From positions 1-59,465 of the forward strand of contig JBKPAK010000014.1 of the NCBI GenBank assembly GCA_046726415.1: a DNA stretch of 59,465 bases, written 5' to 3'. The notes beneath the pieces were generated by a model, which saw only the letters and a list, made by a program, of their open reading frames with translations, was not told the DNA's origin and ran no database searches. The position numbers and the translations under genes are program-made. Below, one piece after another: positions 40,268 to 59,465 of the stretch. Origin of the DNA: Candidatus Methylomirabilota bacterium. GTDB taxonomy: Bacteria; Methylomirabilota; Methylomirabilia; Rokubacteriales; CSP1-6. How positions within the stretch are numbered: position 1 is the stretch's first letter; the number at the start of each line of letters is the position of its first letter.

Positions 40268-40274
40268 GCGCCCC

Positions 40275-42421: not shown

Positions 42422-43327
42422 TCAGGCCAGCGCGCGGCGCACCTCGGCCAGCCGCGCCAAGGAGCCGAGAACCTTGGGCTGATCGTCAGTCAGGTGGCGG
42501 ACGATGATGTCGGTGTAACCCATGGCCGCGAGCGGCCGGAGCTGGGCCGCAACCTCGTCGATCGAACCGATCACCAGCGACTCGCGCGGGAAGCTGCGGT
42601 AGCCACGGGCGAGGACGGCCTCCGCCGTCGCCCGCGCCTCGGACGCATTCTCGCCCACGTACAGGTCGCGGCGGATCGCGATGGCCGTGGGCCGCCGCCC
42701 ATGGGCGGCACAGCGCTCGCGGTAGTAGTCGATCTGAGCCCGGGCGTCGGCGAGCGGTAGGGACGGCGAGGCGAGGAAGCCGTCGGCGAGGCGCGCCGCG
42801 CGATCGATTGCGGGAAGCGCCGAGGCGCCGATCCAGTACTCTACGGTCTCGGCGGGCCGCAGGGCCACCATGGCATTTTCGAAGGCGAAACGCCGTCCGC
42901 CGCTTACCGTCTCCCCGCGCAGCAGGCGTCGGACGATGTCGAAGGCCTCCTCGAAGGCCGAGGGGCGCTGCTTGATCTCGGCGCCCATCGCCGCGAACTG
43001 GGGCTGGCCATCGCCGAGTCCGCACTGGAAGATGAACCGACCGCGCGCGATGGCCGCCAAGGTACCCACCTGCTCGGCCACCAGCACTGGGTTCCACATC
43101 GGCAGCAGGAAGAGGCAGCCCGCCGGCTTGTCGCCCCACTCGGCGAGCAGGCGCCCCAGCATCGGAACGTTCTGATAGTAGGGCGTCGGAGTCGAGTGGT
43201 GATCTCCGATGAACAGCGAGTCGAGACCGGCGCGGTGTGCCGCGGCTGCCCGCTCGACCATCCACCGAGCGCCCTCCCGCGGATCCTGCACCACGTGGCT
43301 ACTGGTCAGCGAAATCCCGAGGCGCAT
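42422..43327 (-). CDS. LLM-class flavin-dependent oxidoreductase
   Basis: [47 protein letters not shown]. Confidence 0.88.
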
Positions 43328-43635: not shown

Positions 43636-45690
43636 TCATGGCGCGGAGCCGGCGATCACGAGCACGTCAACGGCCACCGCGTGATGGCCCGCAGCGATCA
43701 CGGGATTGAGATCGATCTCCAGGACTCGAGGCTCGGCCAGCAAGAAATCGCCCACACTGCACAGCATCTCGGCGAGCGGCTCCTCGTCGCACCGCGGGAG
43801 GCCGCGCGGGCCAGCGAGCAGGCGTCCCCGCGCGCCTTCGCGGAGAAGCGTGCGGGCCGCGTCCGCGTCGAGCGGCGCCAGTGCGAGGCCCACGTCGCGC
43901 ATCACCTCGGTGAAGATTCCCCCGATCCCTACGACCACCACCGGCCCGAACGTCGGGTCGCGGCGGCCGCCGATGAGGAGCTCGACGCCTGGACCCACCT
44001 GCTCCTGCACGATGAAGTGCTCAGCACCGGCCCGCATGCGCAGCGTGCCACAGGCCTCGCGCACACCAGGGGCGTCGCGGACCTGCGTGAGCACGCCGCC
44101 GACCTCGGTCTTGTGGAGAAGCCCCGGGCGACCAGCCTTTACGACAACGGGATAGCCAAATCCCTCGGCTGCCCGCACGACCTCTTCGACCGAGGGGGTG
44201 ATGGCCTCCCGGCAGAATCGCACGCCGTGGGCCTGGAGGGCGCGGCGCGCGAGCGCGGTGGGCACCGGGCCATCTGTCGAAGCGAGGGCCGCGGCCACGT
44301 CGGCAGGCAGCGCGCGGGCCGAGCGGGGAAGCATCGGCGGCCGAGGGCGCGCCATCCACAGAGACCGCCACGCGCGCACGGCGCGCTCGGGACTCGGCAG
44401 CGTGGGGACGTCAGCGGCCACGAAGCGCGCGGTGAGCCGCGGCGCGTCGGCCGTGAAGGCCACCAGTGGCTTGCCGGTCTCCCGCGCGGCGGCGATCAGT
44501 CCATCCGCAAACTCCGGGAAGTCGAGTCCGACATTGACGGCGATCCCCCCGGCCACCGTCGGCTGGCGAAGGACGAGGCTCACGGCCGGCGCCACGTGGG
44601 ACGGCTCCACCTGAGGCGTGAGGTCGACGGGATTCCCCACGGCCGCGAAGGGCGGCAGCAGCTCGCGCAGGGCGGCGCGGACCGAGTCGTCGAGTGGCGG
44701 CACGCGCAGGCCGGCGCGCTCGGCGGCGTCGGCGGACACCACCGAGGGGCCCCCGGAGACCGTGATGATGGCCACGCTCGGCATGGCCGGACGCGCATCG
44801 CGCGCCGTCACCAGCACCTCGATGGCGTCGAAGAAATCCTCGGTCTCCTCAGCCAGAACCACTCCGGCCCGATCGAAGGCGGCCCGGTAGACTTCGTAAC
44901 TGCCCGCGAGGGAGCCGGTGTGAGAGCCCGCGGCGCGACGTCCGGCCTCCGAACGGCCGCCCTTGAGCACGACGACGGGCTTGCGTGCGGAGGCCTGCGC
45001 CGCCACCTCGACGAAGCGCCGTCCGTCTCTCAGCGCCTCGACAAAGCACGCGATGAGACTTGTCTCGCCGTCATCGGCGAGGTATTCGATCACGTCGGCG
45101 ACGTCGACGTCGACCTGGTTGCCGATGGAGAGCAGGCGTGAGATCCCGAGCCCGCGCCCCCCGAGGTGGCGAAAGATGAGCCCGCCATACGCGCCGCTCT
45201 GTGAGACCACCCCGATGCCGCCCGTAACCTGAGGGAGATCCCAGAAATACGTGCCGTTCAGTCGGGCCGGCGCGGAGTACACGCCCATGCAGTTCGGGCC
45301 CACCAGCCGCAGGCCGGCCCGGCGCGCCTCGGCGAGGAGGTCGGCCTGCGTCTCCCGGCCCTCCGCATCGACTTCGCCGAAACCCGACGAGAGCACGACG
45401 GCGACGCGGACGCCCCGCGCGGCCAGGCGCGCGACCGCCTCCGGCACGGCCGGCGCGGGAAGGCTGATCAGGGCGAGATCGATCCCGGCCGGAAGTGCAT
45501 CGATCCTCGCCACGGTCGGGTAGTCGAGGATCGGCTCTCCCGCGGGATTGACGACGTGGATCGCTCCGCCGAAGCCGCGCGCCTTGACGTTCTGCAGCAG
45601 CTTGAAACCGAGCTTGGCCGGATTGCGCGACGCGCCCAGCACGGCGACCGAGCGCGGCGCGAAGAGCGCGTCGAGCGGGCGCCCGCTCAC
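43636..45690 (-). CDS. ADP-forming acyl-CoA synthetase (acetate--CoA ligase family, fused)
   Basis: GTGA overlap with the upstream gene; LFAPRSVAVLGAS, VGPNCMG, SQSG, phospho-His SHTGSLAG, NPVDLT, ATP-grasp HKTEVGGV, EIDLNP. Confidence 0.92.
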   Translation of the reverse strand: MSGRPLDALFAPRSVAVLGASRNPAKLGFKLLQNVKARGFGGAIHVVNPAGEPILDYPTVARIDALPAGIDLALISLPAPAVPEAVARLAARGVRVAVVLSSGFGEVDAEGRETQADLLAEARRAGLRLVGPNCMGVYSAPARLNGTYFWDLPQVTGGIGVVSQSGAYGGLIFRHLGGRGLGISRLLSIGNQVDVDVADVIEYLADDGETSLIACFVEALRDGRRFVEVAAQASARKPVVVLKGGRSEAGRRAAGSHTGSLAGSYEVYRAAFDRAGVVLAEETEDFFDAIEVLVTARDARPAMPSVAIITVSGGPSVVSADAAERAGLRVPPLDDSVRAALRELLPPFAAVGNPVDLTPQVEPSHVAPAVSLVLRQPTVAGGIAVNVGLDFPEFADGLIAAARETGKPLVAFTADAPRLTARFVAADVPTLPSPERAVRAWRSLWMARPRPPMLPRSARALPADVAAALASTDGPVPTALARRALQAHGVRFCREAITPSVEEVVRAAEGFGYPVVVKAGRPGLLHKTEVGGVLTQVRDAPGVREACGTLRMRAGAEHFIVQEQVGPGVELLIGGRRDPTFGPVVVVGIGGIFTEVMRDVGLALAPLDADAARTLLREGARGRLLAGPRGLPRCDEEPLAEMLCSVGDFLLAEPRVLEIDLNPVIAAGHHAVAVDVLVIAGSAP

Positions 45691-46958
45691 CGCGTCTGCC
45701 GCCGATCGACTACGCGCACCGCCTTGCCCGGCGGCCGTTCCAATTCGCCGAGGCGACACAGGCGGACCTCGGGGCTGAGGGCCAGCCGGTCGTGCAGTTC
45801 CCGCCGGATGAGGGAGGCCAGGCCGGGGTCGCCGTCGTCCTCCGCTTCCGCCAGGATGACCATCCGCTCGCCTCCGGCCCCCGACTCCAGCACGATCTGG
45901 TACTCGGGGCCAAGGCCGGGCAGGCAGAGCAGTGCCGCCTCCACCTGGCGTGGATAGAAGTTCACGCCCTTGTAGATCACCATGTCGTCGGTGCGACCGC
46001 GCAGGCGATCCAGGCGAAGCGCGGTCCGCCCGCACGCGCAGCGATCCCGGGAAACGATGCGGGTGAGGTCGTGGGTGCGATACCGAATGAGCGGTAGACC
46101 TTCGCGGGTGAGCGTCGAGACGACCAGCTCACCCTCGGTGCCATCCCGGAGGGGGCGGCCCAAAGCCGGATCGACGATTTCCACGAAGTAGTGATCCTCC
46201 CACACATGGATGCCCGCGCGCGCCTCGCAGTCGATGCCAAGCCCCGGCCCACCCGTCTCCGTCATGCCGATGATGTCGAAGGTGCGGATGCCGAGCTCGC
46301 GCTCGATCCGCGCGCGCAGCTCGTCCGACCACATCTCCGAGCCGAAGATCCCCACGCGCAGGGCGAGGGAGCCCAGGTCGATGCATTCCTCGCGAGCCAC
46401 CTCGATGAGGCGCAGCGGATACGTCGCGATGGCCGCCACCACCGTCGTCCGCAGATCGCGCATGAGCCGCAGCTGCAGGCTGGTGCGCCCGGCGCCGGTC
46501 GGGATCACCATCGCCCCCAGTTTCTCCGCGCCGTAGTGAAAGCCGAAGCCGCCTGTGAAGAGCCCAAACGACGGCGTGATCTGGACCACGTCCGCGCGCG
46601 TCACCCCGGCTGTCGCGTAGCAGCGCGCCATGACCTCGCCCCACTGCTCGACGTCATTGGCCGTGTAGGGGTTGAGGATCGGGTTACCCGTGGTGCCGCT
46701 CGACATGTGAACGCGCCGATAGGCGTCGGGGCCCCCACAGGCCAGGTCGAACGGATAGGCGTCGCGCAGTTCTTCCTTGGTCAGAAAGGGTAGTTGAGAC
46801 CAGTCGCCAACGCACGCCAGGTCGTGCGGGTGGACGTGGCCGAGGCGACGCGCGTGCGCTGGCTGGCGAAGAGCGCGCATCAGGGTGGCCCGCATGCCCT
46901 CGAGCTGCAGCCCCTCCAGCGCCTCGCGATCGAGCGCCTCGCGTTCGGGTCGCCACAT
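45687..46958 (-). CDS. Phenylacetate--CoA ligase family protein (PaaK-like)
   Basis: LPFLTKEELRDAYPF, SSGTTGNP, GLFTGGFGFHYGAE, GMTETGGPG, PLIRYRTHD, GRTDDM, GKAVRVVD. Confidence 0.92.
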   Translation of the reverse strand: MWRPEREALDREALEGLQLEGMRATLMRALRQPAHARRLGHVHPHDLACVGDWSQLPFLTKEELRDAYPFDLACGGPDAYRRVHMSSGTTGNPILNPYTANDVEQWGEVMARCYATAGVTRADVVQITPSFGLFTGGFGFHYGAEKLGAMVIPTGAGRTSLQLRLMRDLRTTVVAAIATYPLRLIEVAREECIDLGSLALRVGIFGSEMWSDELRARIERELGIRTFDIIGMTETGGPGLGIDCEARAGIHVWEDHYFVEIVDPALGRPLRDGTEGELVVSTLTREGLPLIRYRTHDLTRIVSRDRCACGRTALRLDRLRGRTDDMVIYKGVNFYPRQVEAALLCLPGLGPEYQIVLESGAGGERMVILAEAEDDGDPGLASLIRRELHDRLALSPEVRLCRLGELERPPGKAVRVVDRRQTR

Positions 46959-47159
46959 CACGGGGGCAGGGTTCGCGGAGCTCTCAGGGCCCGGGCCACG
47001 GCGTCCACGCGGGCGTCGGCGACGCCGGCGACCTGCCGGCAGGCCGCCAGACAGCACCGCAGCGCGGACACCGGAAGGAGGCGTCTCACCGCGAGCCAGT
47101 GTAGATCAGTTGCCGCGACGGCGGAGGAAGGCGAGAACGTGCGAGAATCGCCGGGAGCC

Positions 47160-48311
47160 ATGGCAGACGGGATCACGCTCTTCGTCGTCCGGGGCATTCC
47201 GGTGCGCGCGCACCCGAGCTGGCTCTTGATTCTGGCCTTGCTCACGTGGAATCTCGCCGTCGGCTACTTCCCGCATGTCCTGCCCGAACTGCCGGTGGGC
47301 GCCCTGTGGATCAGGGCCCTGGTGGCCGCGCTTCTGCTCTTCGCCTCCGTGTTCCTGCACGAGTTGGCCCACTCCATTGCCGCCCTCCACTACGGGATCC
47401 CCGTGTCGAGCATCACCTTGCACATCTTCGGGGGCGTATCCCAACTCGAACGGGAGCCGAGCCGGCCGGGGTCCGAATTTGCCATCGCGGTGGTGGGGCC
47501 GCTCACGAGCTTCGCCATCGCCGGCGTGCTGGTCGTCGCGGGTCTCGTGCTCGATCCCGGGGCTGGCGCGCGGGCCACCATGCAGTACCTGATCTTCGTG
47601 AACGTGCTCCTGGGCGTCTTCAACCTCATCCCCGGCTTTCCGCTCGACGGCGGCCGCGTCCTCCGAGCCGTGCTGTGGCGTCTCAAGGGCAACCTGGCCT
47701 GGGCGACCCGCGTGGCCGCGCGCACCGGCTCCGTTTTCGCCTTCATTTTGATAGGACTGGGTATCCTGCGCGCGTTCACCGGTGAACTCATCGGCGGACT
47801 CTGGTTCGTGCTGATTGGTCTCTTTCTCCGCCAGTCCGCCGAAAGCAGCTACCAGCAGATGGTGCTGCGGGGCGGGCTGAGTCCGTATGTGGTGCGCGAC
47901 GCCATGACGCGTGACGTGAAGGTCGTGCCGGCCGACACCCCGGTGGGTGCCGTCGTGGACAACTTCTTCTGGAAGCATCACGTGTCGAGCTTCCCCGTCG
48001 TCGACGGCCAGCGCGTGGTGGGCATTCTCGGTCTCGACCAGGTCAAGGCGCTCGCGCCCGAGGCGCGGAGCACCACGCGGGCCCGGGATCTCATGCTCCC
48101 CCTCTCCGACGCGCTCCGGGTCACGCCGGCCGACTCGCTCTGGCACGCGCTCGAGAAGCTCACGCGGAACGGGCTGGGTCGGGTGGCGGTGATCGACGGC
48201 GACACCCTGGTCGGCTACCTCAGCGTCAAGGACGTGGTGCACGTCCTCTCGGTCGCCCGGGATCAGCGGGCGACGACGCGTCGCCAGAGCGGCGAGCGCC
48301 AGCCGTCGTGA
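47160..48311 (+). CDS. Site-2 protease (M50) with tandem CBS domains
   Basis: HELAH zinc motif, FNLIPGFPLDGGR, C-terminal CBS pair; start reassigned to MADGITL after GGGAG. Confidence 0.93.
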   Translation: MADGITLFVVRGIPVRAHPSWLLILALLTWNLAVGYFPHVLPELPVGALWIRALVAALLLFASVFLHELAHSIAALHYGIPVSSITLHIFGGVSQLEREPSRPGSEFAIAVVGPLTSFAIAGVLVVAGLVLDPGAGARATMQYLIFVNVLLGVFNLIPGFPLDGGRVLRAVLWRLKGNLAWATRVAARTGSVFAFILIGLGILRAFTGELIGGLWFVLIGLFLRQSAESSYQQMVLRGGLSPYVVRDAMTRDVKVVPADTPVGAVVDNFFWKHHVSSFPVVDGQRVVGILGLDQVKALAPEARSTTRARDLMLPLSDALRVTPADSLWHALEKLTRNGLGRVAVIDGDTLVGYLSVKDVVHVLSVARDQRATTRRQSGERQPS

Positions 48312-49375
48312 AGCACCTCCCGGATTTCGCGCCGAACCAGGTCGCCTAGGCCGAGTCGATCCAGACCGCGGCCGCCGGCCCGGAGATCGCGCCCCAGCAG
48401 CGCGCCGAAGACCGAGAGCAATCCGCTCACCGCCGGAGTGTCGACGCCGGCCAGTCGCCCCGTCGATTCGAACAGCGAGAGACCGAGGGCGACGTCCTCG
48501 GTCACATAGCGGTGCTCGAAGGTGACGATCTCGCTCCACAGGCCGCTGGCCACGACCTTGGCCTTGGCCCCTGCACCGTATAGCCCCTCGGCGGCTCGCG
48601 CGTCGTCGTAGATCGTGTCCTGCTCGTAGTGGGGCGCGGGATACCCCAGGCCCGCGCGGATGGCCACCCGCTCCCCGTCCACCGCGGCGATCAGCCGCCG
48701 CACGCTGGGCGTCGTTCCCGAGGCGTGGATGTCGAAGCGACCGCCGTCGATGGCTCCCGCGTTGAGGAGCACCAGCGGCGCGTGGATCACAGTCCCCGCG
48801 TTGGTCAGGGCCACGTCGAGGGCGTCGCGACAGGGACGCATCGTGGTGAAGAGCCCGCGCAGACGCTCCTGCACCTCCGCGGCGTGGGCGGCCGGGAACA
48901 CGCCGGTCGGCAGATTGGCAGCCCGGACCGGCGCCGTGACCTCCGCCGGCCCCGTCCGGCGCGCGAGGTACGGCAGGGTACCCGTCTCGGCAAAGGCGAA
49001 GGGCAGGCGCCCTCCCACGCGCGCAATCTCCCTGGCCATGACGTACGACCCGAAGGTTCCCGGCGTGATCAGCACGATCTGACGCGGATCGAGCACCTCG
49101 GCCAGGCGCGGGGCGAGGTCTTCGTGGGTGGTGGCCGGGAGGGGAATGATCACCACCTCGGCGCCATCGAGCGCCTCCGGCAGTGCCGCGGTGGCGCGGT
49201 CGAGCTTGGCGCGGCCCTGCCGTCCTTCCGCGATCAGCATGATCCCGCCCGCGGCGCGGATGGGCGCCAGATCCTCTTCGCGGCGGCGCCAGAGGCGGAC
49301 GTCGTGTCCGTCCAGGGCCAGGTCGGCTGCCGTGGCATGCGCGCCATGACTGCCGCCGAGCACCGCCACTCTCAT
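48263..49375 (-). CDS. NAD/NADP octopine/nopaline (opine) dehydrogenase family protein
   Basis: ATGA overlap; MRVAVLGGSHGAHA Rossmann start, PGTFG, ETGTLPY, LTNAGTVIH, HRYVTEDVALGL. Confidence 0.9.
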   Translation of the reverse strand: MRVAVLGGSHGAHATAADLALDGHDVRLWRRREEDLAPIRAAGGIMLIAEGRQGRAKLDRATAALPEALDGAEVVIIPLPATTHEDLAPRLAEVLDPRQIVLITPGTFGSYVMAREIARVGGRLPFAFAETGTLPYLARRTGPAEVTAPVRAANLPTGVFPAAHAAEVQERLRGLFTTMRPCRDALDVALTNAGTVIHAPLVLLNAGAIDGGRFDIHASGTTPSVRRLIAAVDGERVAIRAGLGYPAPHYEQDTIYDDARAAEGLYGAGAKAKVVASGLWSEIVTFEHRYVTEDVALGLSLFESTGRLAGVDTPAVSGLLSVFGALLGRDLRAGGRGLDRLGLGDLVRREIREVLHDGWRSPLWRRVVAR

Positions 49376-50598
49376 GCCACGACTCCCGCCGCGCGCAAGG
49401 CGGCCAAACGGTCCGGGGAATATCCGAGCAGATTGGCGAGTACCTCGTCCGTATGCTCGCCAAGCCGTGGCGCCGGCGCCGGCGTCAGACCCATCGCGCC
49501 ATCGAGCTTGATCGGTGTGCCCAGGGTCGGCACTCGCCCCAGGCTGGGATGAACGAGATCGATCACCATCTGGCGATGCCTCACTTGTGGATCGCTGAGC
49601 ACCCGATCCACGCTCAGGATCGGCGCGCTCGGCACGCCCTCGGCGTGCAGCCGCTTGAGCCATTCCTCGGTCGTCCGCACGGCAAAGACCTCCTCCACCA
49701 GGGCCATAAGCGCTGCGCGGTGGGCCACGCGGTCACGGTTCCTGGCGAATCGCGGATCCCCCTCCCACTCCGGGTGCTCGACCGCGCGGCAGAAGGCGCC
49801 CCAGAACTTCTCGGCGAAGACCGCCACGATGAGATGTCCGTCTCGCGTCTGGAGCGCCCCATAGGGAACGACCGAGGCGTGGGCCGAGCCAAGTGGCCCG
49901 GGCACGCGCCCATCGGTCCAGAAGTACTGCGCGATGTAGGTCAGCAGCGACACTTGACAGTCGAGTAGTGACAGGTCCAGGCAGGCGCCCTCGCCCGTTC
50001 GCGAACGGCGGAAGAGCGCGCCGGCCACGGCGAAGGCGCCGAACATCCCCCCGGCGAGATCCCCCATCGGCAGACCCATCCGCACGGGCCGCCCGTCGCG
50101 TTCTCCGGTGAGGCTCATCGCGCCACCCATCGCCTGCAGGGCCAGGTCGAAGGCGGGCCAGTCCCGATAGGGCCCATCGCCGCCGTAGGCGGAGATCGAG
50201 CAGACAATCAGCCGTGGATTTGCCCCGCGCAACGCTGGCGGCGGACACCCGAGGCGCTCCAGGATGCCGGGACGGAAGTTCTCCCACACCACATCGGCCG
50301 TGCGCACCAGCTCCAGGAACACCGCCCGGCCGTCGGGCTTCTTGAGATCGAGGGCCACGGATTTTTTGTTGCGATTGATGGCCAGGAAGTATGCGCTTCC
50401 TCCGTCACTCAGGAACGGCGGGCCCATGATCCGCATCGGGTCACCGCCATCGGGCTCCTCGATCTTGATCACCTCGGCCCCCGTGTCGGCGAGGAGCATC
50501 GAGCCGTACGGCCCGGCGAGCATCCGCGACAGGTCCAGCACCCGTACCCCGTCGAAGAGCTTCACGACGCCTGGCGAGGCCGCGCCCCCCGATGACAT
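49372..50598 (-). CDS. Class III CoA transferase (CaiB/BaiF family)
   Basis: DLSRMLAGPY, GAEVIKIE, NRNKKS, ENFRPG, PMGDLAGG (catalytic Asp), APRLGEHT. Confidence 0.94.
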   Translation of the reverse strand: MSSGGAASPGVVKLFDGVRVLDLSRMLAGPYGSMLLADTGAEVIKIEEPDGGDPMRIMGPPFLSDGGSAYFLAINRNKKSVALDLKKPDGRAVFLELVRTADVVWENFRPGILERLGCPPPALRGANPRLIVCSISAYGGDGPYRDWPAFDLALQAMGGAMSLTGERDGRPVRMGLPMGDLAGGMFGAFAVAGALFRRSRTGEGACLDLSLLDCQVSLLTYIAQYFWTDGRVPGPLGSAHASVVPYGALQTRDGHLIVAVFAEKFWGAFCRAVEHPEWEGDPRFARNRDRVAHRAALMALVEEVFAVRTTEEWLKRLHAEGVPSAPILSVDRVLSDPQVRHRQMVIDLVHPSLGRVPTLGTPIKLDGAMGLTPAPAPRLGEHTDEVLANLLGYSPDRLAALRAAGVVA

Positions 50599-52928
50599 CA
50601 GCGCGATGCCCTCAAGGCCGCGTGCACCTTTTCCGGCGTGATGGGCAGTTCGGTGAAGCGGATTCCGATGGCATCGTGGATGGCGTTGGCCACTGCCGCC
50701 GAGACCGGAATGACCCCCGACTCGCCGAGGCCCTTGGCCCCGAACGGGCCTTCCCGGTCATCGGTCTCGATGAAGCGCACGGCGATCTCGGGCATGTCGC
50801 GGGCTCTCAAGAGCGCGTAGTCCATGAAGGTCGAGCTGAGGATCTGTCCGTTCTCGACCACGAGCTTCTCGCTGAGCGCGTAGCCCAGGCCCATGTGGAT
50901 TCCGCCGTGGATCTGTCCCTCGGCGGCCATGGGGTTGAGGGCGCGGCCCACGTCGTGCGCGGAGGCGATCCGGCGGACCGCGGCCCGACCCGTGGCCTCT
51001 TCCACATCGATCAGCACCGCCTGGGCGGCGAAGCCGTACGTGGCCGACACGTTGCCGCGCAGATCCTTGTCCAGCATGGTCGTCGGCGGATCGTAGAACG
51101 CTTCGGCGACCAGGACGCGACCTCCTTCCCGGTAGTGGCCGGCGCGAGCCACGCGCTCGTAGGGCTCCCGACGGCGCGGGTCGGACGCGATGAATACCCA
51201 TCCGTCGCGAACCTCGAGCCGATCTGGCGACTCGTCGAAGACGGACGCCGCCATGGCCAGGAGCTGGCGCTTCAAGTCCTCCGCGGCCAGGCGAGCGGCA
51301 TTGCCGGCAATGAACGTCGTGCGGCTGGCGTGGGTGCCCACGTCCCACGGCTTCAACGACGTGTCGGAGTTTACGACGTTCACCCGTTCGAGCGGGACGC
51401 CGAGCGTCTCCGCCACGATCATGGCCAGCACCGTCTCCGATCCCTGCCCGATCTCGGTGGCCCCCGTCAGGAGCGTCACCGCGCCGAAGTCGTCCAGCTT
51501 GAGGATGGCCCCGCAGCCGTCCGAGCGATAGATCCGCGCGCCGCCACCGACGTGGAACATCCCGGCGAAGCCAATCCCACGCCTCCATCCGAGGCGCGGC
51601 GGCGGCAGATCCTTGCCGATCTCTTCCGCGGCGGCGTCCAGGCATTCGGCGAGAGCGCACGAGGTGATGGCGAAGCCTTGCGGATTCACGTCGCCGGGTC
51701 GATTGGCGTTGCGGCGCCGGAACTCGAGACGGTCGAGGTGGAGCCGGTCGGCCAGGTCGTCCATTTGCGACTCCACGGCAAAGGTCGACTCGAGGTTGCC
51801 GTAGCCTCGCATGGAGCCGGAGTACGGATTGTTGGTGTACACGATGGTGGTGTCGAAGCGCACGCTCGGACAGCGATAGAGCCCGGCCACGGTGGCGAGC
51901 ATCACGTAGGGCGTGGTCGAGCCCCACGAGACGTAGGCGCCGTTGTCGACCACCACGTGCGCGTCGCGGGCGAGCAGGCGCCCGTCGGCGCCGGCCGCCG
52001 TGCGCAGGTGGATCACGCAGGGCTCACGGCCAGGCGCTCCCACGAATTCTTCGACGCGGTCGAACTCGATCTTCACCGGGCGGCCCACCCGGCGCGAGCA
52101 CAGGGCGGCGATGACGTCGATCGGATAGAGATCGAGTCCACGGCCGAAGTTCCCGCCCACCGGCGGCTGGATGACGCGTACTCGGTCCCCGCCGATACCC
52201 AGCGCCGCGGCCAGGTCGCGCTGGTAGAGAAAGGGCACCTGGGTCGTGCTGTACATGGTGAGGCGCCCGTGCGGATCCCAGTCGGCGATGGCCACCATCG
52301 TGCCCAGGCAGGCGGTGGCCACGAAGGGCAGCCCGTAGCGCCCTTCCACAACTGCGGCCGCGGAGGCGAAGGCGCCCTCGACGTCACCGTGAGCGAACTG
52401 GTAGCGCAGGTGCGTCTGGTTGGTGGCGAGCGCTTCGTGGACGAGCGGGGCGTCGGGATCGAGAGCGCGGGAGGGGTCGAAGTTCGCCGGCAGCTCTTCG
52501 TAGTCGACGTCGATCAGCACCAGCGCCGCCTCGGCCTGCGCCGCCTGATCAGCCACCACCGCCGCGATTTCGTCGCGAATGCAGCGGACCTTGTCGCGCT
52601 TCAAGGGAAGCTGGTCTTTGGCAAAGCCGAAGGGATGCTGCTCCACGTCCCGAGCGGTGAGGACCGCCAAGACCCCGGGGGCCTGGCACGCGCGCCGCGT
52701 ATCGATGTGAAGAATCCGGGCGTGCGGGAATCGCGAGCGCAGGATCTTGGCGTGGGCGATCCGCGGCAGCTCGAGGTCGTGGAGGAAGCGAGTGTGCCCG
52801 GTGACCTTTTCGGCCCCGTCGCGCTTGGCCGTGGATCGCCCGATGACGGAGAAGCTACCCGCGCTCACCGCGAATCCACCCGGCGTGGGCGAACGCGCCC
52901 GATGATTCTCCGCCGGCCGCCACCACAT
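50598..52928 (-). CDS. Xanthine dehydrogenase-family molybdopterin-binding large subunit (alternative start 52868)
   Basis: EKVTG, STTQVP, VGGNFG, SMRGYG, EIGQG, ASRTT, GQIHGG, GAKGLGE. Confidence 0.93.
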   Translation of the reverse strand: MWWRPAENHRARSPTPGGFAVSAGSFSVIGRSTAKRDGAEKVTGHTRFLHDLELPRIAHAKILRSRFPHARILHIDTRRACQAPGVLAVLTARDVEQHPFGFAKDQLPLKRDKVRCIRDEIAAVVADQAAQAEAALVLIDVDYEELPANFDPSRALDPDAPLVHEALATNQTHLRYQFAHGDVEGAFASAAAVVEGRYGLPFVATACLGTMVAIADWDPHGRLTMYSTTQVPFLYQRDLAAALGIGGDRVRVIQPPVGGNFGRGLDLYPIDVIAALCSRRVGRPVKIEFDRVEEFVGAPGREPCVIHLRTAAGADGRLLARDAHVVVDNGAYVSWGSTTPYVMLATVAGLYRCPSVRFDTTIVYTNNPYSGSMRGYGNLESTFAVESQMDDLADRLHLDRLEFRRRNANRPGDVNPQGFAITSCALAECLDAAAEEIGKDLPPPRLGWRRGIGFAGMFHVGGGARIYRSDGCGAILKLDDFGAVTLLTGATEIGQGSETVLAMIVAETLGVPLERVNVVNSDTSLKPWDVGTHASRTTFIAGNAARLAAEDLKRQLLAMAASVFDESPDRLEVRDGWVFIASDPRRREPYERVARAGHYREGGRVLVAEAFYDPPTTMLDKDLRGNVSATYGFAAQAVLIDVEEATGRAAVRRIASAHDVGRALNPMAAEGQIHGGIHMGLGYALSEKLVVENGQILSSTFMDYALLRARDMPEIAVRFIETDDREGPFGAKGLGESGVIPVSAAVANAIHDAIGIRFTELPITPEKVHAALRASR

Positions 52929-52956
52929 CGCCGTCCCTCCATGACCCTGGCATCGA

Positions 52957-54552
52957 TCAGACCTTCACGGGTTCCTTGTGCTCGCCGAAGACGTCCTTCA
53001 GGGCGCCGTTGATTTCACCGAGTGTGGCGTAGGCGCAGACGGCCTCGAGAATGGCTGGCATGAGATTGGCGGTGCCGCGCGCTTCGTCATGCAGCTGGGC
53101 GAGGGCGCGCGCCGCCGCGCGGCCGTCGCGTTCCCGCCGTACTCGGGCGAGCCGGGCCACCTGGGCCTCCGCGACCTTCGCGTCGAAGCCGTACAGCTCC
53201 ACGTCGCGATCGGCCTCGACGGGCTGGTCCCCGACGTGGCAGTTCACGGCGACCTTGGCAATCTCCCCCGAGGCCAGCTTGCGCTCGAACAGGTAGGCTT
53301 GGCGCGCCACTTCCGCCTGGATGGCCCCGCTCTTCACGGCTTCCACGATGCCGCCCATGCGCTCCACCGCGGCCATCTCTTCGAGAATCTTCTTCTCCAT
53401 CTCCCCGGTGAGGGCCTCCACGTAGTACGAGCCGGCCAGCGGATCGACGGTGTCCGTCGCCCCCGATTCTTCGGCGCAGATCTGCATGGTCCTGAGCGCG
53501 ATGAGCTGCGCCTTGGCCGACGGAATCGTGTAGGCCTCGTCGTAGGTCGGCAGGGCCATGGTCTGGGCCCCGGACAGCGCCGCGGCCAGCGCGATGTAGG
53601 CCCCGCGCACGATGTTGTTCTCCGGCTCCTGCACGGTAAAGGCCGATCCGCCGCCCCCGATGAGGCTGCGGAACATCCACGACTTCGGATTGGCCGCCCC
53701 GAAGCGCTCGCGCATCATGCGCGCATACAGCCGTCGACCCGCCCGAAACTTGGCGACCTCCTCGAAGATCTTGCCCCAGCAGGTGAAGTTGAAGGAGAGG
53801 CGCGGGGCGAACTCATCCACGCTCATCCCGCGGGCCAGCATGAGTTCGACGTAGGCCGCCGCGATGGCCAGCCCATAGGCCATCTCCTGCGCGGTGGTGC
53901 AGCCCGCCTCCCGGATGTGGTAGCCGCACACCGACACGGGGTTGGAGCGCGGATAGTGACGGGCCGAGAACTCGATGAGGTCGGCCACCAAGCGCAGCGA
54001 CGGGTCGACGGGATACACCCACGTGCCACGCGCCACGAACTCCTTGAGGATGTCGTTCTGTGGCGTGGTCACCACCAGGTCCGCCGCGGCCCCCTGCTTT
54101 TCCGCCACCGCGTAATACATGGCGGTGATCGGCGCGGCCATGCTGTTGATGGTGAGCGAGACGCTCACCCGATCGAGGGGAATCCCGGCGAAGGCCGCCT
54201 CCATGTCGGCGAGCGTGTCGATGGCCATGCCCACCCGGCCGACCTCGCCGTCCGCCCGCGGGTCGTCGGAATCGAGCCCGAGCTGGGTGGGCAGATCGAA
54301 GGCGACGTTGAGCGCGTCCTGGCCGTGGGCCATGAGGTACCTGAACCGCGCGTTGGTCTCCTCGGGAGTGCCGAAGCCGATGTACTGGCGCATCGTCCAC
54401 ACGCGCTCGCGATACATGTGCTTGTGGATGCCGCGGGTGTACGGATACTGGCCCGGCTGCCCGATGTCGCGGGCGAACTCGATCCCGGCCACGTCCTGCG
54501 GCTCGTACACCGCCTTGACGGGGATTCCGGCGTGCAGCGTGACATCTCTCAT
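52957..54552 (-). CDS. B12-dependent acyl-CoA mutase, substrate-binding large subunit (methylmalonyl-CoA mutase family, atypical)
   Basis: PGQYPYTRG, TMRQYIGFG, AFDLPTQLGLDSD, QNDILKEF, GYHIREAG, EEVAKFRA, DPLAGSYYVE. Confidence 0.94.
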   Translation of the reverse strand: MRDVTLHAGIPVKAVYEPQDVAGIEFARDIGQPGQYPYTRGIHKHMYRERVWTMRQYIGFGTPEETNARFRYLMAHGQDALNVAFDLPTQLGLDSDDPRADGEVGRVGMAIDTLADMEAAFAGIPLDRVSVSLTINSMAAPITAMYYAVAEKQGAAADLVVTTPQNDILKEFVARGTWVYPVDPSLRLVADLIEFSARHYPRSNPVSVCGYHIREAGCTTAQEMAYGLAIAAAYVELMLARGMSVDEFAPRLSFNFTCWGKIFEEVAKFRAGRRLYARMMRERFGAANPKSWMFRSLIGGGGSAFTVQEPENNIVRGAYIALAAALSGAQTMALPTYDEAYTIPSAKAQLIALRTMQICAEESGATDTVDPLAGSYYVEALTGEMEKKILEEMAAVERMGGIVEAVKSGAIQAEVARQAYLFERKLASGEIAKVAVNCHVGDQPVEADRDVELYGFDAKVAEAQVARLARVRRERDGRAAARALAQLHDEARGTANLMPAILEAVCAYATLGEINGALKDVFGEHKEPVKV

Positions 54553-54839
54553 GCTCTGCCCTCCACTCGGCCGAAAAATCGCGCGATCCTCGGGACCAGC
54601 TCCGGACCGCGCTCCTCGAGCGGGGCGTGACCGGCGTTGGCAAGCTCCACGATCTCCACGCGCGGGAAGACGGTTGCGCCAGCGCGGTAGGCCACCGCGA
54701 ATCGTACCCGATCGGCCCACCGAAATCGCGTACGGGCGCGACGTCCCTCCCGCCGACGTTGCGCCTCCGGCCCGCGCCGAGATCCAGCGCGCGGGTCCCG
54801 AACGGATAGCTCCTGGTGATCGATCCAGGCGGGTGTCAC
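54549..54839 (-). pseudogene. Internally deleted alpha/beta-hydrolase remnant that still forms an open 96-codon frame
   Basis: N-terminus [10 protein letters not shown] then (+1 frame) YPFGTRALDLGAGRRRNVGG; C-terminus FPRVEIVELANAGHAPLEERGPELVPRIARFF. Confidence 0.75.
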
Positions 54840-55228
54840 GGCCGGTGCTCGGCGACGGGCTCGGTGAAGGCTGCGACGATCGACGCGAGCGAGGTGCCCA
54901 TCGGAAATATGCCACTGACGCCGAGCTGCTTCAGGGCGTCGGTGTCGCGCGGAGGGATGGTTCCACCCACCACGACGCGAACATCCTCGGCTCCCTGGGC
55001 CCGCAGCCCCTCCAGCACGCGCTTGGACAGCGGGAGATGGGCGCCCGACAGGATCGAGAGTCCCACGACGTCGACGTCCTCCTGGATGGCCTCGGCCACG
55101 ATCTCCTCGGGCGTGCGCTTGAGGCCTGTGTACACGACCTCCAGCCCGGCGTCGCGCAAGGCCTGCGCGACGACCTTGGCGCCACGGTCGTGACCGTCGA
55201 GCCCGGGCTTGGCGATGAGGATTTTCAT
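54836..55228 (-). CDS. B12-binding small subunit of the acyl-CoA mutase
   Basis: [16 protein letters not shown] (DxHxxG), [17 protein letters not shown]. Confidence 0.95.
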
Positions 55229-55262
55229 TGGACAGGGCCCGGGCCCGGCGCGAGCGGCGACA

Positions 55263-55691
55263 TCACGCCACCTGGAACGCGGGGAGCCAGCGCTCCAGGC
55301 CGTTCGCGTCGTCGGCAACACGTAGCGGAGCCAGTCGCACGCGTTGGCCCATCCGCACCGACGTGGGATCGGCGCCGGTGACGACGGTGAAGATACGGTG
55401 GTCGGCGACCATGACGATGGCGAAGACGCGGGGCCCCGCGAAGCCCGCCGGGAGTCCGGCCTCCTGGACGGTAAAGGCGTACACCGTACCCTCGGAGGGT
55501 AGATCGATCCAGTCGAAGCGATCAGACCCGCAGTGGGGACAGAAGCCGCGCGGCGGCCACGCCGCCCGGCCGCAGCCCGCACACTGTGTGGTGGACAGCC
55601 GCCCGGCGGCCAGGCGCGCGTAGAAGTCGTGCAGCTTGGTCTGCTCAGGAGACTCCAGCGGGAACGGATCGATGGCGCGGTAGTAGGTCAC
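55263..55691 (-). CDS. DUF35/ChsH2-like Zn-ribbon + OB-fold protein (thiolase partner)
   Basis: QCAGCG...[29 protein letters not shown] overlap with the upstream gene. Confidence 0.92.
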
Positions 55692-56665
55692 GCGCCGGCC
55701 CGCTCGCGCTTGAGCTGACGCAGCAGCGCGCGCAACTTCGCCGTCTCGAACTCCTCGCGCCGCTCGCCGCCGTAGTCGTAGAATCCCCGCCCGGTCTTGG
55801 GGCCCAGCTCGTTGGCCGCGACCTTCTCCTCGACCAGGCGAGCGGCCCGGAACCGCTCGTCGCCGAGGGCCTTCGTCATGTAGTCGCTGGCCCGGTGCAG
55901 GATGTCCACTCCGCCCCAGTCGATGAATTCAAAGATCCCGATCGTGGCGTAACGGAACCCCATGCCGGCCCGGAAAGCGCGATCGACGTCCGCGGGCGTG
56001 GCGACCCCCTCCTCGACCAGGCGTACCGCCTCGTTCATGAGCAGGCATTGCAGGCGTGGCCCGATATAGCCAGGCGACGCAGCACAGCGGACCGGCGTCT
56101 TCCCGAGCCGCTCCAGGATACTCAGAGTCCGCTCGACGACATTCGACGCCGTGCGCGGGCTCGGTACCACTTCGACGAGCGGGATGACGTAGGCCGGATT
56201 CAACCAGTGGGCGACGAGGAAGCGCTCGGTCCCGTGCACGGCGTCCATGAGGTCGGCGGGGTTGATGGTCGAGCTGGTAGACGCCAGGATGGCGTCGTCC
56301 GCCACCAGACCGCCCAGCCGATCGAACACGTTCCGCTTCAGTTCGACCTGCTCCGGCAGAGCTTCCTGGACGAATTCACAGTCGGCGATTGCTGACAGCT
56401 CTCGATGCTCTTCGATCCGGGCGACGGTGGCGTCGGTGTCGGCCACGCCGAGCAACCCCTCCTCGACCATGAGCTCGAGATCGCGCGCCATCTCGCGGCG
56501 CGCGTCGGTAAAGGTGGCGGCCGCCTCGCGGGGGGAACGCGGCTTGACATCCACAAGAGACACCGAGCACCCAGCCAGCGCGAAGGTGAGCGCGATGCCC
56601 CGCCCCATCCGACCAGGCCCGATGACCCCGACCCGTCGTGGGAGGATGGCGAGCTCGTCGTTCAC
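55688..56665 (-). CDS. 3-hydroxyacyl-CoA dehydrogenase family protein
   Basis: GPGRMGRGIA, EALPE...LK, ASTSST, HWLNPAY, GYIGPRLQ, ELGPKTGRGFY; start reassigned to the GTG overlapping the thiolase stop. Confidence 0.92.
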   Translation of the reverse strand: MNDELAILPRRVGVIGPGRMGRGIALTFALAGCSVSLVDVKPRSPREAAATFTDARREMARDLELMVEEGLLGVADTDATVARIEEHRELSAIADCEFVQEALPEQVELKRNVFDRLGGLVADDAILASTSSTINPADLMDAVHGTERFLVAHWLNPAYVIPLVEVVPSPRTASNVVERTLSILERLGKTPVRCAASPGYIGPRLQCLLMNEAVRLVEEGVATPADVDRAFRAGMGFRYATIGIFEFIDWGGVDILHRASDYMTKALGDERFRAARLVEEKVAANELGPKTGRGFYDYGGERREEFETAKLRALLRQLKRERAGA

Positions 56666-57831
56666 GCCGCCTCCCGGCCGTAGATCATGACGACGTGCTC
56701 GCCCATGCCGCTGTTGTTGTGGGTGAGGCCGAAATCGGTGTCGGGCACCTGACGGGCGCCCGCCTCGTCGCGGAGTTGCTGGAAGACTTCCACCGCCTGG
56801 GCAACCCCCGTCGCTCCCAGTGGATGGCCGCACCCGATGAGGCCGCCGCGCGGGTTGACCACCACGTCGCCGCCATAGTCGCTGCGTCCAGCCTGCACGA
56901 AGAAGCCGGCCTCGCCCTTGTCGCAGAAGCCCAGCTCTTCGTACGCGATCAGCTCGGCGATTGCGAAACAGTCGTGCACCTCGGCGAGCTCGATGTCGGC
57001 CGGGCCCACCCCCGCCATGCGGTAGGCAGCCTCGGCCGCCCGCTTCAGCGCTGGCCAGTGGGCGTAGTCTTCGTGGAGCGAAGTGAGCTGAAAACCGTCG
57101 AGAGCCTGGCCCGTTCCGCGGATCCACACCGGCCGGTCGGTGAGGTCCCGCGCCCGCTCCTCGGAGGCCAGGATGACGGCGGCGGCGCCATCGGTGATGG
57201 GCGAGCACATGAACAGGCGCAGCGGGGTGGCGATCATCCGCGAACAGAGCACCTGATCGAGGGTGGCGCCCTTGTTGAAGTGCGCGTTCGGGTTCTTCGA
57301 GGCGTGGGTGTGGTTCTTCACGCCCACCAGGGCGAGCTGCTCCTCGGTCGTTCCGTATCGCTGCATGTGGCGTTGCGCGGCCAGAGCGAAGCAGGGCGGC
57401 GCCGTGAGCCCGAACGACCCTTCCCACTCGCGGTCCACCCCCGTGCCCATGTTGAGGACGGCCTCGTCGCTGCTGGGCTGGTTTAGCTTCTCGACACCCA
57501 GCACCATCACCAGATCGGCCAGCCCTGCCGCGATGAAGGCATAGGCGTAGCGGATGCCCACCGTCCCCGAGGCGCACATGTGCTCGGTGCGCGCGCTCAG
57601 AGCGCTGGGTCGGATCCCCAGCGCCTCGGCGGCCATCGACGCGATGTGGCTCTGGAACGCCGTGCGCTCCGGCATGACGGAGCCGACCACGAGCCCCTCG
57701 AGGTCGCGTGGCCTCACCCCTGGGGCGGAGTCGAAGCAGACCTTGCCTGCCTCCCAGATGAGGTCGCGATACGTCGCTCTGCGCACGCCGAACTTGGAGA
57801 CACCGGCCCCTATCAGCGCCACGTTTCGCAT
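56662..57831 (-). CDS. SCP2-type thiolase family protein
   Basis: EHMCASG, CSPITDGAAA, EVHDCF, GHPLGATG; AGGAG RBS. Confidence 0.93.
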   Translation of the reverse strand: MRNVALIGAGVSKFGVRRATYRDLIWEAGKVCFDSAPGVRPRDLEGLVVGSVMPERTAFQSHIASMAAEALGIRPSALSARTEHMCASGTVGIRYAYAFIAAGLADLVMVLGVEKLNQPSSDEAVLNMGTGVDREWEGSFGLTAPPCFALAAQRHMQRYGTTEEQLALVGVKNHTHASKNPNAHFNKGATLDQVLCSRMIATPLRLFMCSPITDGAAAVILASEERARDLTDRPVWIRGTGQALDGFQLTSLHEDYAHWPALKRAAEAAYRMAGVGPADIELAEVHDCFAIAELIAYEELGFCDKGEAGFFVQAGRSDYGGDVVVNPRGGLIGCGHPLGATGVAQAVEVFQQLRDEAGARQVPDTDFGLTHNNSGMGEHVVMIYGREAA

Positions 57832-57952
57832 CGCCGGCTCCTACTGGACCTCTTCCGACGCGAAGGCAATCTTTCGGATCTCCATCACTCGTCTCCGAAG
57901 AATACTGGTCCGGCCTCCGCCACGCTCGCGCGATGCGCCGGTCCTCCGAGGC

Positions 57953-59110
57953 TCATGGAATCTCCCCTCGCGTGTAGTCGAGGTCCCGCGCGATGATGAG
58001 TCGGAGGATCTCCGACGTTCCGCCGCCGGGCAGGAGAAAGCGCGCGTCCCGGAAGTAGCGCTGGACCGGATACTCCATGGCCAGCCCGTACGAGGCAAAG
58101 ATGCGCGCGGCCTCGTCGGTGACTCTGACCGCCATTTCGGAGGCAAACAGCTTCACCATCGCCGCCTCCCGGGTGATGGCGGCGCCGAGGTCGAGCCTGG
58201 CCGCTGCCTGGTACGTCATGAGCGTGGCCGCGTGCATCGAGGTCAGCATGTCGGCCAGCTTGAACCCGATGGCCTGGTGCTCGCCGATCGGCTTGCCGAA
58301 GGCCACGCGCTGCCGGGAGTAGTCCAGGGCCGCCTGGTGAGCGCCGCGGGCCACTCCCAGTGAGAGAGCCGCCGTCATCACGCGAATCTCGGACAGGATG
58401 GACCCGATCGCCTCCGCGCCGCCCGTCTCGCCCCCCAGCAGGTGCGTGCTCGGGACCTCGACGTCCTCGAGCAGGATCTCTCCCGTCTCCGAGGCGCGCA
58501 CCGCCATCTTGTCGATCTTCTTCCCGAGGGCAATGCCCCGCATGGTCGAGCGATCGAGGAGGAAGAGCGCGATGTTCTTCATGCCGCGCTCGGCCGAGGT
58601 CTTGGCGGCCACCGTGAAGACGTCGGCCACCGGCGCGTTGGTCACCCACGTCTTGCCCCCGTGGAGCACCCAGTGGTCGCCGCGACGCTCGGCGCGGGTG
58701 GTCATGCCCGCCAGATCGGAGCCGGCATTCGGCTCGGTCAGGGCGAAGGTCGCCACCACTTCACCGCGGAGCGCGGGCACCAGGTACCGCTGGCGCACTT
58801 CCTCGGAGCCGTGCTTGTAGATGAAGTACGTCCCCATGAGCGACTGCATGGCCGCGGCCGCCGCCAGCGACAGTGAGCCCCGCGCCAGCTCTTCGGCGAA
58901 GAGGCAGTAGGTCACCATGTCGGCCTCGGCCCCGCCGTAGGCCTCGGGATAGCGAAGCGCGAGGTAGCCCAGCTCGCCGAGCCGGCGAAAGAGCTTGGTG
59001 GGGAACTCCCCGCGCTCGTCGAGGGCGGCCGCCTCCGGCACGACCTCGGCGTCGACGAAGCGGGCGATGCTCTTGCGAAACTCGTCCTGCTCTCGCGTGA
59101 AGCAGATCAT
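57953..59110 (-). CDS. Acyl-CoA dehydrogenase family protein lacking the canonical catalytic Glu
   Basis: FALTEPNAGSD, GGKTWVTN, RVAFGKPI, VKLFASE, RYFRDAR; C-terminal motif reads PGGGTSEILR. Confidence 0.93.
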   Translation of the reverse strand: MICFTREQDEFRKSIARFVDAEVVPEAAALDERGEFPTKLFRRLGELGYLALRYPEAYGGAEADMVTYCLFAEELARGSLSLAAAAAMQSLMGTYFIYKHGSEEVRQRYLVPALRGEVVATFALTEPNAGSDLAGMTTRAERRGDHWVLHGGKTWVTNAPVADVFTVAAKTSAERGMKNIALFLLDRSTMRGIALGKKIDKMAVRASETGEILLEDVEVPSTHLLGGETGGAEAIGSILSEIRVMTAALSLGVARGAHQAALDYSRQRVAFGKPIGEHQAIGFKLADMLTSMHAATLMTYQAAARLDLGAAITREAAMVKLFASEMAVRVTDEAARIFASYGLAMEYPVQRYFRDARFLLPGGGTSEILRLIIARDLDYTRGEIP

Positions 59111-59235
59111 GGTAGCGGCCGCGCGGGGACCGTCTCGAACCGAGGGTGGCCTGCTCGAGGTGCGCGGGGCTTCATGGTAGCGACCGCGCGGGGACCGTCT
59201 CGAACCGAGGGTGGCCTGTTCGAGGGACGCGGGGC
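59107..59235. repeat. Two tandem 64-bp units (65-bp period), each encoding an ATGA-bounded mini-ORF on the minus strand
   Basis: 59107-59170 versus 59172-59235: 4 mismatches in 64 nt. Confidence 0.9.
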
Positions 59236-59245
59236 CGCGTCCAAT

Positions 59246-59465
59246 TCATGATTGTCGCCGCCGGAGCGCTTCGCCAGTCGCCTGGCCGAGCGCGGAGCTT
59301 CGCACCTGTCCTCTCTTCTCGGCGCGCAAGGTCAAGGTGGCCGCTTCGTCGAGCGTGGGCTCGCCGTCGTCCTCCGCGATGACGACGCCGTAGCGGCTGC
59401 GCGCGGCCTCGACGGAGACGTACTCGTCCAGCACGTCGTCGAGCACGCGACGGGGATCGCGCCCG
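59246..59465 (-). CDS. C-terminal end of a hydantoinase B/oxoprolinase family protein (partial)
   Basis: GRDPRRVLDDVLDEYVSVEAARSRYGVVI...LDEAATLTLR, the typical hydantoinase B tail; frame open to the window edge. Confidence 0.82.
   Translation of the reverse strand, partial: GRDPRRVLDDVLDEYVSVEAARSRYGVVIAEDDGEPTLDEAATLTLRAEKRGQVRSSALGQATGEALRRRQS

Follow-up and report, generated by a model that had tools for sequence, protein, structure and literature searches.

What does the large minus-strand catabolic gene cluster on contig JBKPAK010000014.1 degrade, and is it a known pathway in a new host? The window analyzed here is this entire contig (C14, 59,465 bases), part of a 98% complete genome of a Candidatus Methylomirabilota bacterium (G000). 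The host is assigned to the Rokubacteriales because relatives of the cluster's IaaF-type acyl-CoA dehydrogenase (ACAD) in that order are 77–84% identical (best 80 of 500 confirmed GTDB loci). A first-pass annotation had described the cluster as resembling, but differing from, the iaa pathway for anaerobic degradation of indole-3-acetate (IAA). Our comparisons bear this out. Since the core is orthologous to IaaF, IaaG, IaaH and IaaK while five other components of the iaa pathway are absent or replaced, the cluster is, judged by sequence, an undescribed variant and not merely iaa in a new host. It probably encodes a rewired route from IAA or 2-oxindole-3-acetate to 2-aminobenzoyl-CoA, acetyl-CoA and CO2.

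Core enzymes shared with the iaa pathway

The iaa cluster of Aromatoleum aromaticum EbN1 and A. evansii was represented by locus L100, a metagenome contig that was one of two retrieved with the published iaaF reverse-primer site (PMC8360864). This locus encodes regulators, a thiolase, a ligase, HydA, HydB, a dehydrogenase, two mutase subunits, three molybdenum (Mo) enzyme subunits, a CoA transferase and a binding protein, in an order consistent with the letters in the Fig. 1 legend of that paper. Gene order was the basis for assigning the letters A, C, E, I, J and K. An accession backs IaaF alone: the L100 dehydrogenase falls in the same 90% cluster as the characterized IaaF CAI07262 (95.5% identical). 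The best matches for L100 proteins in the host genome were window genes, with identities of 48.7% (IaaF), 52% (IaaG), 54.5% (IaaH) and 47.7% (IaaK).

In the dehydrogenase, GGG at residues 362–364 replaces YEG, and the classical catalytic Glu is absent. The GGG motif is given as a marker of the IaaF subclass in PMC8360864. The protein falls in a 21-row clade with IaaF (FastTree, SH-like support 99), on a branch of its own together with Myxococcota and Dormibacterota proteins; supports in this tree are SH-like only, and the hydB and CoA transferase trees include duplicate rows of own-genome paralogues. Five of 120 close homologues carry the JGI label 'benzylmalonyl-CoA dehydrogenase', and no solved IaaF structure was among the 60 structure matches listed. 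The best plasmid match of the dehydrogenase, a Massilia protein (44.5%), was ruled out as iaa on account of its locus.

The mutase large subunit keeps Tyr89, Arg207 and His244 of Propionibacterium shermanii methylmalonyl-CoA mutase (MCM), and therefore a dicarboxylate substrate is expected. The substitutions F287N, H328L, Q330G and N366P replace residues by which the pocket of housekeeping MCM is closed, and the pocket would thereby be remodelled for a bulky dicarboxyl-CoA substrate. The motif VCGYHIRE, an xNF motif, a Gly-rich loop and TMAL are common to the window mutase and IaaH and absent from the two other mutases of the host, which also encodes a MeaB-type chaperone for the mutase. The Mo-hydroxylase large subunit keeps the Moco motifs and the catalytic Glu; the next paralogues are only 35–37% identical to the L100 protein.

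The cluster is conserved across the order. In the 80 loci, which span 10 kb so that counts for distal genes are minimums, the dehydrogenase, a thiolase, a 3-hydroxyacyl-CoA dehydrogenase-like protein (HCDH), a DUF35 protein, the small and large mutase subunits, the Mo large subunit, a CoA transferase and an opine-type dehydrogenase (ODH) recur in this order at about 65–90% identity. Upstream of the dehydrogenase a GntR-family regulator (54/80), hydA (60/80) and hydB (69/80) are arranged as GntR-hydA-hydB-ACAD. In an even sample of the order comprising 121 genomes, a mutase orthologue (at least 75% identity) was present in 84, an orthologue of the hydantoinase gene hydB1 (at least 65%) in 82 and both in 77; three genera had neither. 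The IaaK orthologue is retained in nearly all loci of sufficient length, and cluster loci also occur in Myxococcota and Dormibacterota. It is scarcely credible that housekeeping or decaying genes (MCM, branched-chain ACAD, oxoprolinase) have come to lie together here by chance, as the many small passenger genes inserted in relatives and the loss of the core in the same-genus genome G002 might suggest: synteny and phylogeny refute this, mutase and HydB1 co-occur and are jointly missing, and the host has separate ordinary mutases. BLAST and phylogeny against the Iaa proteins, the check that the first-pass annotation had proposed, set the core apart from housekeeping MCM, ACAD and oxoprolinase proteins; close orthology to every Iaa protein was not seen.

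Some individual loci differ in content. The compact Myxococcota cluster L076 has two Asp/Glu-racemase-like genes (by eye) after hydB, and the compact Dormibacterota cluster L080 has a split AbmA-family gene downstream. In regions of sister family f4, e.g. L084:15977-17502, the mutase and CoA transferase genes are separated by one or two genes that, judged by eye, resemble methyltransferases and have no place in the IAA scheme. Locus G002:C1:200923-213259 retains GntR, the Mo large subunit, ODH, PaaK, an ADP-forming synthetase and a second ACAD and is without hydantoinase, IaaF-type dehydrogenase, thiolase, HCDH, mutase and the CoA transferase CoAT1; the retained genes may be a sub-module, or the locus may be decaying.

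Replaced components and the proposed route

Ring opening, CoA handling and thiolysis are assigned to the same protein families as in the iaa pathway, and a GntR regulator likewise stands upstream in Rokubacterial relatives, but this regulator is not orthologous and five components of the iaa pathway are absent or replaced. The hydantoinase pair HydA1/HydB1 is 36/29% identical to IaaC/IaaE, and HydB1 forms a clade apart from IaaE. A second hydantoinase pair (49% to IaaC, 56–62% to IaaE) occurs in 10 of the 121 genomes and lay inside the cluster in all eight regions examined. No IaaE orthologue was present in the host assembly, the sequence upstream of the contig end being outside view; the assembly holds 17 hydantoinase B genes. 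The CoA transferase CoAT1 forms a clade separate from IaaL (SH 100), the best host matches to IaaL being 29–32% identical, and its nearest solved structure is succinate-hydroxymethylglutarate CoA transferase. IaaL orthologues (42–44%, SH 100) occur inside the same cluster in some relatives.

The PaaK-family ligase gave no blastp match to IaaB, a ligase of the long-chain type, at E 1e-3. The slot after PaaK holds an IaaL-like transferase in eight regions and an ADP-forming synthetase in the window and five regions, never both, which suggests that the two act on the same intermediate. The first-pass annotation had been less certain of these two ligases; the conserved slot pattern settles their membership. 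The thiolase is 27% identical over 142 residues to the iaa thiolase and is of the DUF35-paired instead of the classical type.

The FAD and iron–sulfur (FeS) subunits IaaI/J are missing from the window. This absence, which had been noticed before, is a family trait: an orthologue of the L100-type FAD subunit was found in 0/96 genomes of the window's family (best 43–48%, paralogues), compared with 17/21 genomes of f4, which has the full three-subunit Mo enzyme. The host has about 40 xanthine-dehydrogenase-family large subunits. Since about half of them have no FAD/FeS genes nearby, it is plausible that the large subunit borrows these subunits in trans. The lack of an enoyl-CoA hydratase was also confirmed for the window, but is local, as a MaoC-type hydratase directly follows the dehydrogenase in 40/80 related loci. 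The iaa pathway of Ebenau-Jehle 2012 reportedly includes IaaP, a hydratase/dehydrogenase fusion; no fusion of this type was found within the 20 kb of L100 examined. Compared with iaa, ODH–HCDH, the ADP-forming synthetase and a second ACAD are added, and relatives also have MaoC/SDR proteins, an epimerase-like VOC protein and, in many clusters, an aromatic-ligand V4R protein.

From these assignments the following route is predicted. PaaK would activate IAA itself. The Mo enzyme would hydroxylate C2 with water, in the window's family with borrowed FAD/FeS subunits, and ATP-dependent HydA1B1 would open the lactam, for which the free acid is the most likely form. CoAT1 would then transfer CoA from succinyl-CoA onto (2-aminophenyl)succinate, so that the intramolecular shift by IaaL would be unnecessary. 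The B12 mutase would yield (2-aminobenzyl)malonyl-CoA, which the GGG dehydrogenase would decarboxylate to 2-aminocinnamoyl-CoA. A MaoC-type hydratase, here acting in trans, a dehydrogenase and the thiolase–DUF35 pair would release 2-aminobenzoyl-CoA, the predicted substrate of an O2-dependent AbmA-type monooxygenase/reductase. Alternatively the ADP-forming synthetase might free anthranilate from 2-aminobenzoyl-CoA, with ATP gain. Entry as the free acid, the in-trans partnership of the Mo subunit, the hydratase step and the reaction of ODH–HCDH are what we infer from the gene complement. The weakest step is that of ODH and HCDH, for which a feeder role, oxidizing an N-carboxyalkyl or side-chain-hydroxylated indole compound towards indolepyruvate or IAA, is possible though doubtful. 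Variant iaa operons in sulfate reducers and archaea were reportedly surveyed by Schühle in 2016, so some of the enzyme replacements may already be in print.

Links to indole metabolism and the identity of the substrate

Genes of indole and anthranilate metabolism adjoin the cluster in relatives. Indolepyruvate oxidoreductase is encoded inside 3/80 loci, TrpB2 heads the run next to the dehydrogenase in 5/7 f4 regions, and TrpD lies downstream of the cluster in five f1 regions. In L091:370-4383 and the G040 region, as in several genomes, TrpD, a second GntR gene and electron-transfer flavoprotein beta/alpha genes follow the cluster. This flavoprotein could be what accepts electrons from the IaaF-type enzyme; in PMC8360864 the acceptor under anaerobic conditions is called an open question.

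AbmA-family monooxygenase genes lie between the two cluster halves in the seven f4 genomes with all three markers on one contig, in G056 (the one annotated) alongside a benzoate-family ligase and a hydratase. In L080 such a gene follows the cluster at a distance of two genes, about 2 kb. These linkages recall the abm pathway of A. evansii, in which, according to PMC4539516, 2-aminobenzoyl-CoA monooxygenase/reductase attacks its substrate with O2. The host encodes BoxB and a full-length PRK08255 (AbmA-family) protein above cut-off (G000:C99:9314-11569); however, this gene is on a contig other than the window, occurs also in genera without the cluster, and PRK08255 also spans salicylyl-CoA 5-hydroxylases. 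Neither a class I benzoyl-CoA reductase (PF06050) nor a NarG match above cut-off was found in the host genome. Two of its four AOR-family genes, compared with PDB, ranked BamB last; the other two were only scanned against NCBIfam. With AbmA-family and BoxB genes present and class I benzoyl-CoA reductase not found, the pathway is probably finished with O2. According to PMC8360864, IaaF made use of O2 in vitro, and IAA supports growth of A. aromaticum both in the presence and in the absence of O2; taken with the O2-dependent abm route, hybrid, micro-oxic use fits the host better than strictly anaerobic use. The O2-independent degradation that had been proposed thus stands for the upper pathway, while the visible routes of the host for the predicted end product need O2.

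The added ODH also points towards indole or auxin metabolism. Its clade (at least 42% identity) is represented in 11 PLSDB records, and in 11/11 a PRK08269-type gene adjoins it that is 42–48% identical to the window HCDH. Six of the 11 records also carry iacC or iadD, markers of the aerobic auxin pathways iac (P. putida 1290) and iad (V. paradoxus CL14); the background is 31 iacC and 37 iadD records among 72,556 (matches at E 1e-100), although large proteobacterial replicons are a fairer background than all plasmid records. The pair lies directly beside iacR in Acinetobacter, directly after the iad locus in Paracoccus, within 8–14 kb of iac/iad markers in three Burkholderia and on the same plasmid as a marker in Azospirillum. 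The auxin locus of Variovorax begins with the pair, and the P. putida 1290 orthologues QCI12134/5 are numbered beside the iacT1 match QCI12136 (PMC9613470, Supplementary Table 1). The match of QCI12134 to the window ODH extends over its full length, with other plasmid ODHs at 20–36%, and in a tree with two outgroup rows both branches come out as sisters. Further resemblances are that iad relies on an SCP2-type thiolase containing a DUF35 domain and on indolepyruvate oxidoreductase, and that abm-type genes come after one iad locus. In contrast, iac and iad attack the indole with O2-dependent oxygenases and are without B12 mutase, hydantoinase or Mo enzyme.

Expression data in PMC9613470 connect the pair to IAA itself. 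In the wild type the expression value of ODH was −1.61 without and +1.50 with IAA; in an iadDE deletion it rose from −1.56 to +3.34. HCDH followed. Both genes rose in 4/4 Variovorax strains tested, and the response was also seen in a strain unable to degrade IAA. Opine genes had been noticed on an iac island, but were regarded as a separate trait (PMC6624763). Among the papers listed by our literature searches, none was on the function of the ODH–HCDH pair or on an iaa-type cluster in Rokubacteria. The window ODH shares the fold of CENDH (PDB 1BG6) and keeps the equivalents of His202, Arg292, Tyr293 and Asp297, including the catalytic His-Asp-Arg set. Asn198 and Trp258/Tyr259 are not kept in the alignment, so that the amino-acid pocket differs. 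Several facts speak against a core role of the pair. The pair is unlinked to iac/iad in 5/11 plasmid records, its gene IDs are distant from the auxin locus in Bradyrhizobium and Achromobacter, and in Variovorax only iadDE was necessary and sufficient, ODH–HCDH not being required for IAA removal, both according to PMC9613470. ODH is present in 57/121 genomes and in none of the 21 of f4.

Locus L144:9124-18728, on a plasmid of the haloarchaeon Natrinema, combines hydA1-hydB1, an SDR gene, ODH, HCDH, a VOC-like gene and an ADP-forming synthetase. With HydA1B1 (46–47%) directly before ODH–HCDH and no mutase in 29 kb, it favors an explanation in which the substrate would be a non-indole N-heterocycle or aliphatic lactam (e.g. 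an opine lactam or 3-carboxymethyl-pyrrolidone). After ring opening ODH would de-aminate it, and the rearrangement would take place at the level of an alkylsuccinyl-CoA. CoAT1 also resembles aliphatic dicarboxylate transferases, and IaaF weakly accepts C4–C6 alkylmalonyl-CoAs according to PMC8360864. We nevertheless consider this explanation very improbable in view of the indole and anthranilate linkages of cluster and pair, the V4R protein, and the f4 genomes, of which 17/21 keep both hydB1 and mutase without any ODH. The first-pass preference for such a substrate over auxin is not supported, given the ODH–HCDH pairs beside iac/iad loci and their induction by IAA in Variovorax.

For the IAA route itself there are contrary observations. 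Identity between the universal hydrolase and IaaE is just 29%, and an IaaCE pair is present in addition in 10 genomes, which suggests that HydA1B1 acts on another lactam. The plasmid proteins nearest to HydA1B1 (Caballeronia 50%, Palleronia 46%) stand in non-indole contexts. Core identities of 48–55% may allow an altered aryl group, and the mutase pocket departs from IaaH at several places (RQYIG, TTPQ, SLIGGG). The GGG motif is not diagnostic, as it occurs in 11 rows outside the IaaF clade and one sister row. The TrpB2 and TrpD linkages may each be one ancestral event, and no RNA data set was among the listed holders of cluster DNA. The same chemistry might be directed mainly at a different indole or benzo-lactam, such as an indoleacetate with ring substituents, an oxidation product or conjugate of tryptophan, or a lactam of the quinolinone type from spontaneous ring closure of intermediates. 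In that case IAA would be a substrate just for the genomes in which the IaaCE pair is added. This would agree with the coexistence of two hydantoinase pairs and two CoA transferases in one cluster, with the differing pocket residues, and with an amidohydrolase, the f4 methyltransferase-like genes, the second ACAD and ODH–HCDH, none of which has a place in the IAA scheme. We hold it to be unlikely, because AbmA-type and TrpD neighbours suit unsubstituted 2-aminobenzoyl-CoA, IaaK is so widely kept, and ODH–HCDH orthologues respond to IAA even where it is not degraded. The IAA or 2-oxindole-3-acetate route is therefore preferred.

Gene layout and significance

Every gene named in the first-pass annotation was recovered on the minus strand and in the order given, with Pfam and NCBIfam matches far above chance (Table 1). 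Four junctions within 48263-57831 overlap or abut (−4, −4, −1 and −4 nt). The cluster, which had been delimited at 43636, runs further left to the second ACAD, whose orthologues in relatives stand after the ligase/transferase slot. The S2P/CBS gene, on the opposite strand, extends 49 bases into the 3' end of the ODH gene; in G002, ODH abuts PaaK. For the luciferase-like monooxygenase no orthologue was found in the relatives' regions examined.

Table 1. Features of the catabolic cluster and its immediate surroundings in the window.
Feature	Position	Strand	Evidence
Hydantoinase B, C-terminal 72 codons only (Rokubacterial hydB1 clade, not IaaE)	59246..59465	-	similarity to relatives' hydB1
~65-bp tandem repeat, two copies 93% identical, in hydB-ACAD spacer	59111..59235	.	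sequence comparison
IaaF-type decarboxylating acyl-CoA dehydrogenase, GGG motif	57953..59110	-	48.8% to CAI07262; IaaF clade
Archaeal/BbsB-type thiolase, not IaaA	56662..57831	-	PRK06064 above cut-off; catalytic Cys and both His kept
PRK08269-type HCDH	55688..56665	-	PRK08269 372 bits vs cut-off 427
DUF35 (Zn-ribbon/OB) thiolase partner	55263..55691	-	PF12172 and PF01796; weak BbsA match
B12-binding mutase subunit, IaaG orthologue	54836..55228	-	52% to L100 small subunit; DxHxxG motif
Mutase large subunit, IaaH orthologue, pocket predicted to be remodelled	52957..54552	-	54.5% to L100
Mo-hydroxylase large subunit, IaaK orthologue, no adjoining FAD/FeS subunit	50598..52868	-	47.7% to L100
Class III CoA transferase CoAT1, succinyl-CoA:dicarboxylate type, not IaaL	49372..50598	-	32% to IaaL; separate clade
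ODH, auxin-locus-associated clade	48263..49375	-	43% to P. putida 1290 QCI12134
S2P/CBS protease, lineage-specific insertion, outside pathway	47160..48311	+	opposite strand; absent there in G002
PaaK-family aryl-acetate CoA ligase, conserved member, not IaaB	45687..46961	-	67–78% orthologue in 15 regions
ADP-forming acyl-CoA synthetase	43636..45690	-	conserved in slot after PaaK
Luciferase-like monooxygenase, local insertion	42422..43327	-	PF00296
Second ACAD, YEG type, conserved 3' member	41239..42405	-	68–75% orthologues in relatives, 89% in G002

The hydantoinase B tail gives no family match by itself, but is 52–60% identical to the C-terminus of the relatives' hydB1 over about 50 residues (E 1e-12 to 5e-15), compared with 40% over 25 residues for IaaE. 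The remainder of hydB, with hydA and GntR, likely lies beyond the contig end. Orthologues of these cluster genes were not found elsewhere in the host assembly; in G002 apt-hbd-GntR runs into the cluster, while in the host apt-hbd terminates contig C82, and therefore the gap likely contains GntR-hydA-hydB. Near-identical DNA is present in soil metagenomes, and contigs from two soil runs reach about 730 bases beyond the window end. Three related copies of the tandem repeat lie on G000:C103 at about 7414-7661, and assembly graphs break at the repeat. Elsewhere in the window, an ordinary peptide-ligase operon at 37886-41231, with circularly permuted ATP-grasp-like (by eye), alpha-E and transglutaminase genes, converges on the cluster, and two RND-type efflux operons (by eye) occupy 6301-12069 and 25743-30064.

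A broader reading can be put forward tentatively, at somewhat less than even odds: that most Rokubacteriales run a free-acid B12 auxin route aimed at 2-oxindole-3-acetate with O2-dependent ring attack, and that ODH and its PRK08269-type partner form an undescribed indole-metabolite module common to the three bacterial auxin pathways (iac, iad and iaa-type). A genome-wide survey of IAA degraders is described in PMC11630574 as screening with iac/iad marker genes, so that an iaa-type Rokubacterial route would be missed. About 70% of the Rokubacteriales genomes sampled carry the cluster, as do loci of Myxococcota and Dormibacterota. The cluster offers candidates for new enzymes, among them a mutase for aryl-succinyl-CoA, a dehydrogenase that would decarboxylate its substrate, lactam hydrolases of a new clade and a Mo subunit retained in the absence of its partners, and it singles out an IAA-induced, unexplained two-gene ODH–HCDH module in cultured model strains. 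If the broader reading is true, this module would hint at an auxin-related compound harvested by bacteria, and the widespread uncultured Rokubacteriales, a soil lineage that gains a concrete, testable substrate, would be an overlooked soil sink for auxin and oxidized auxin.

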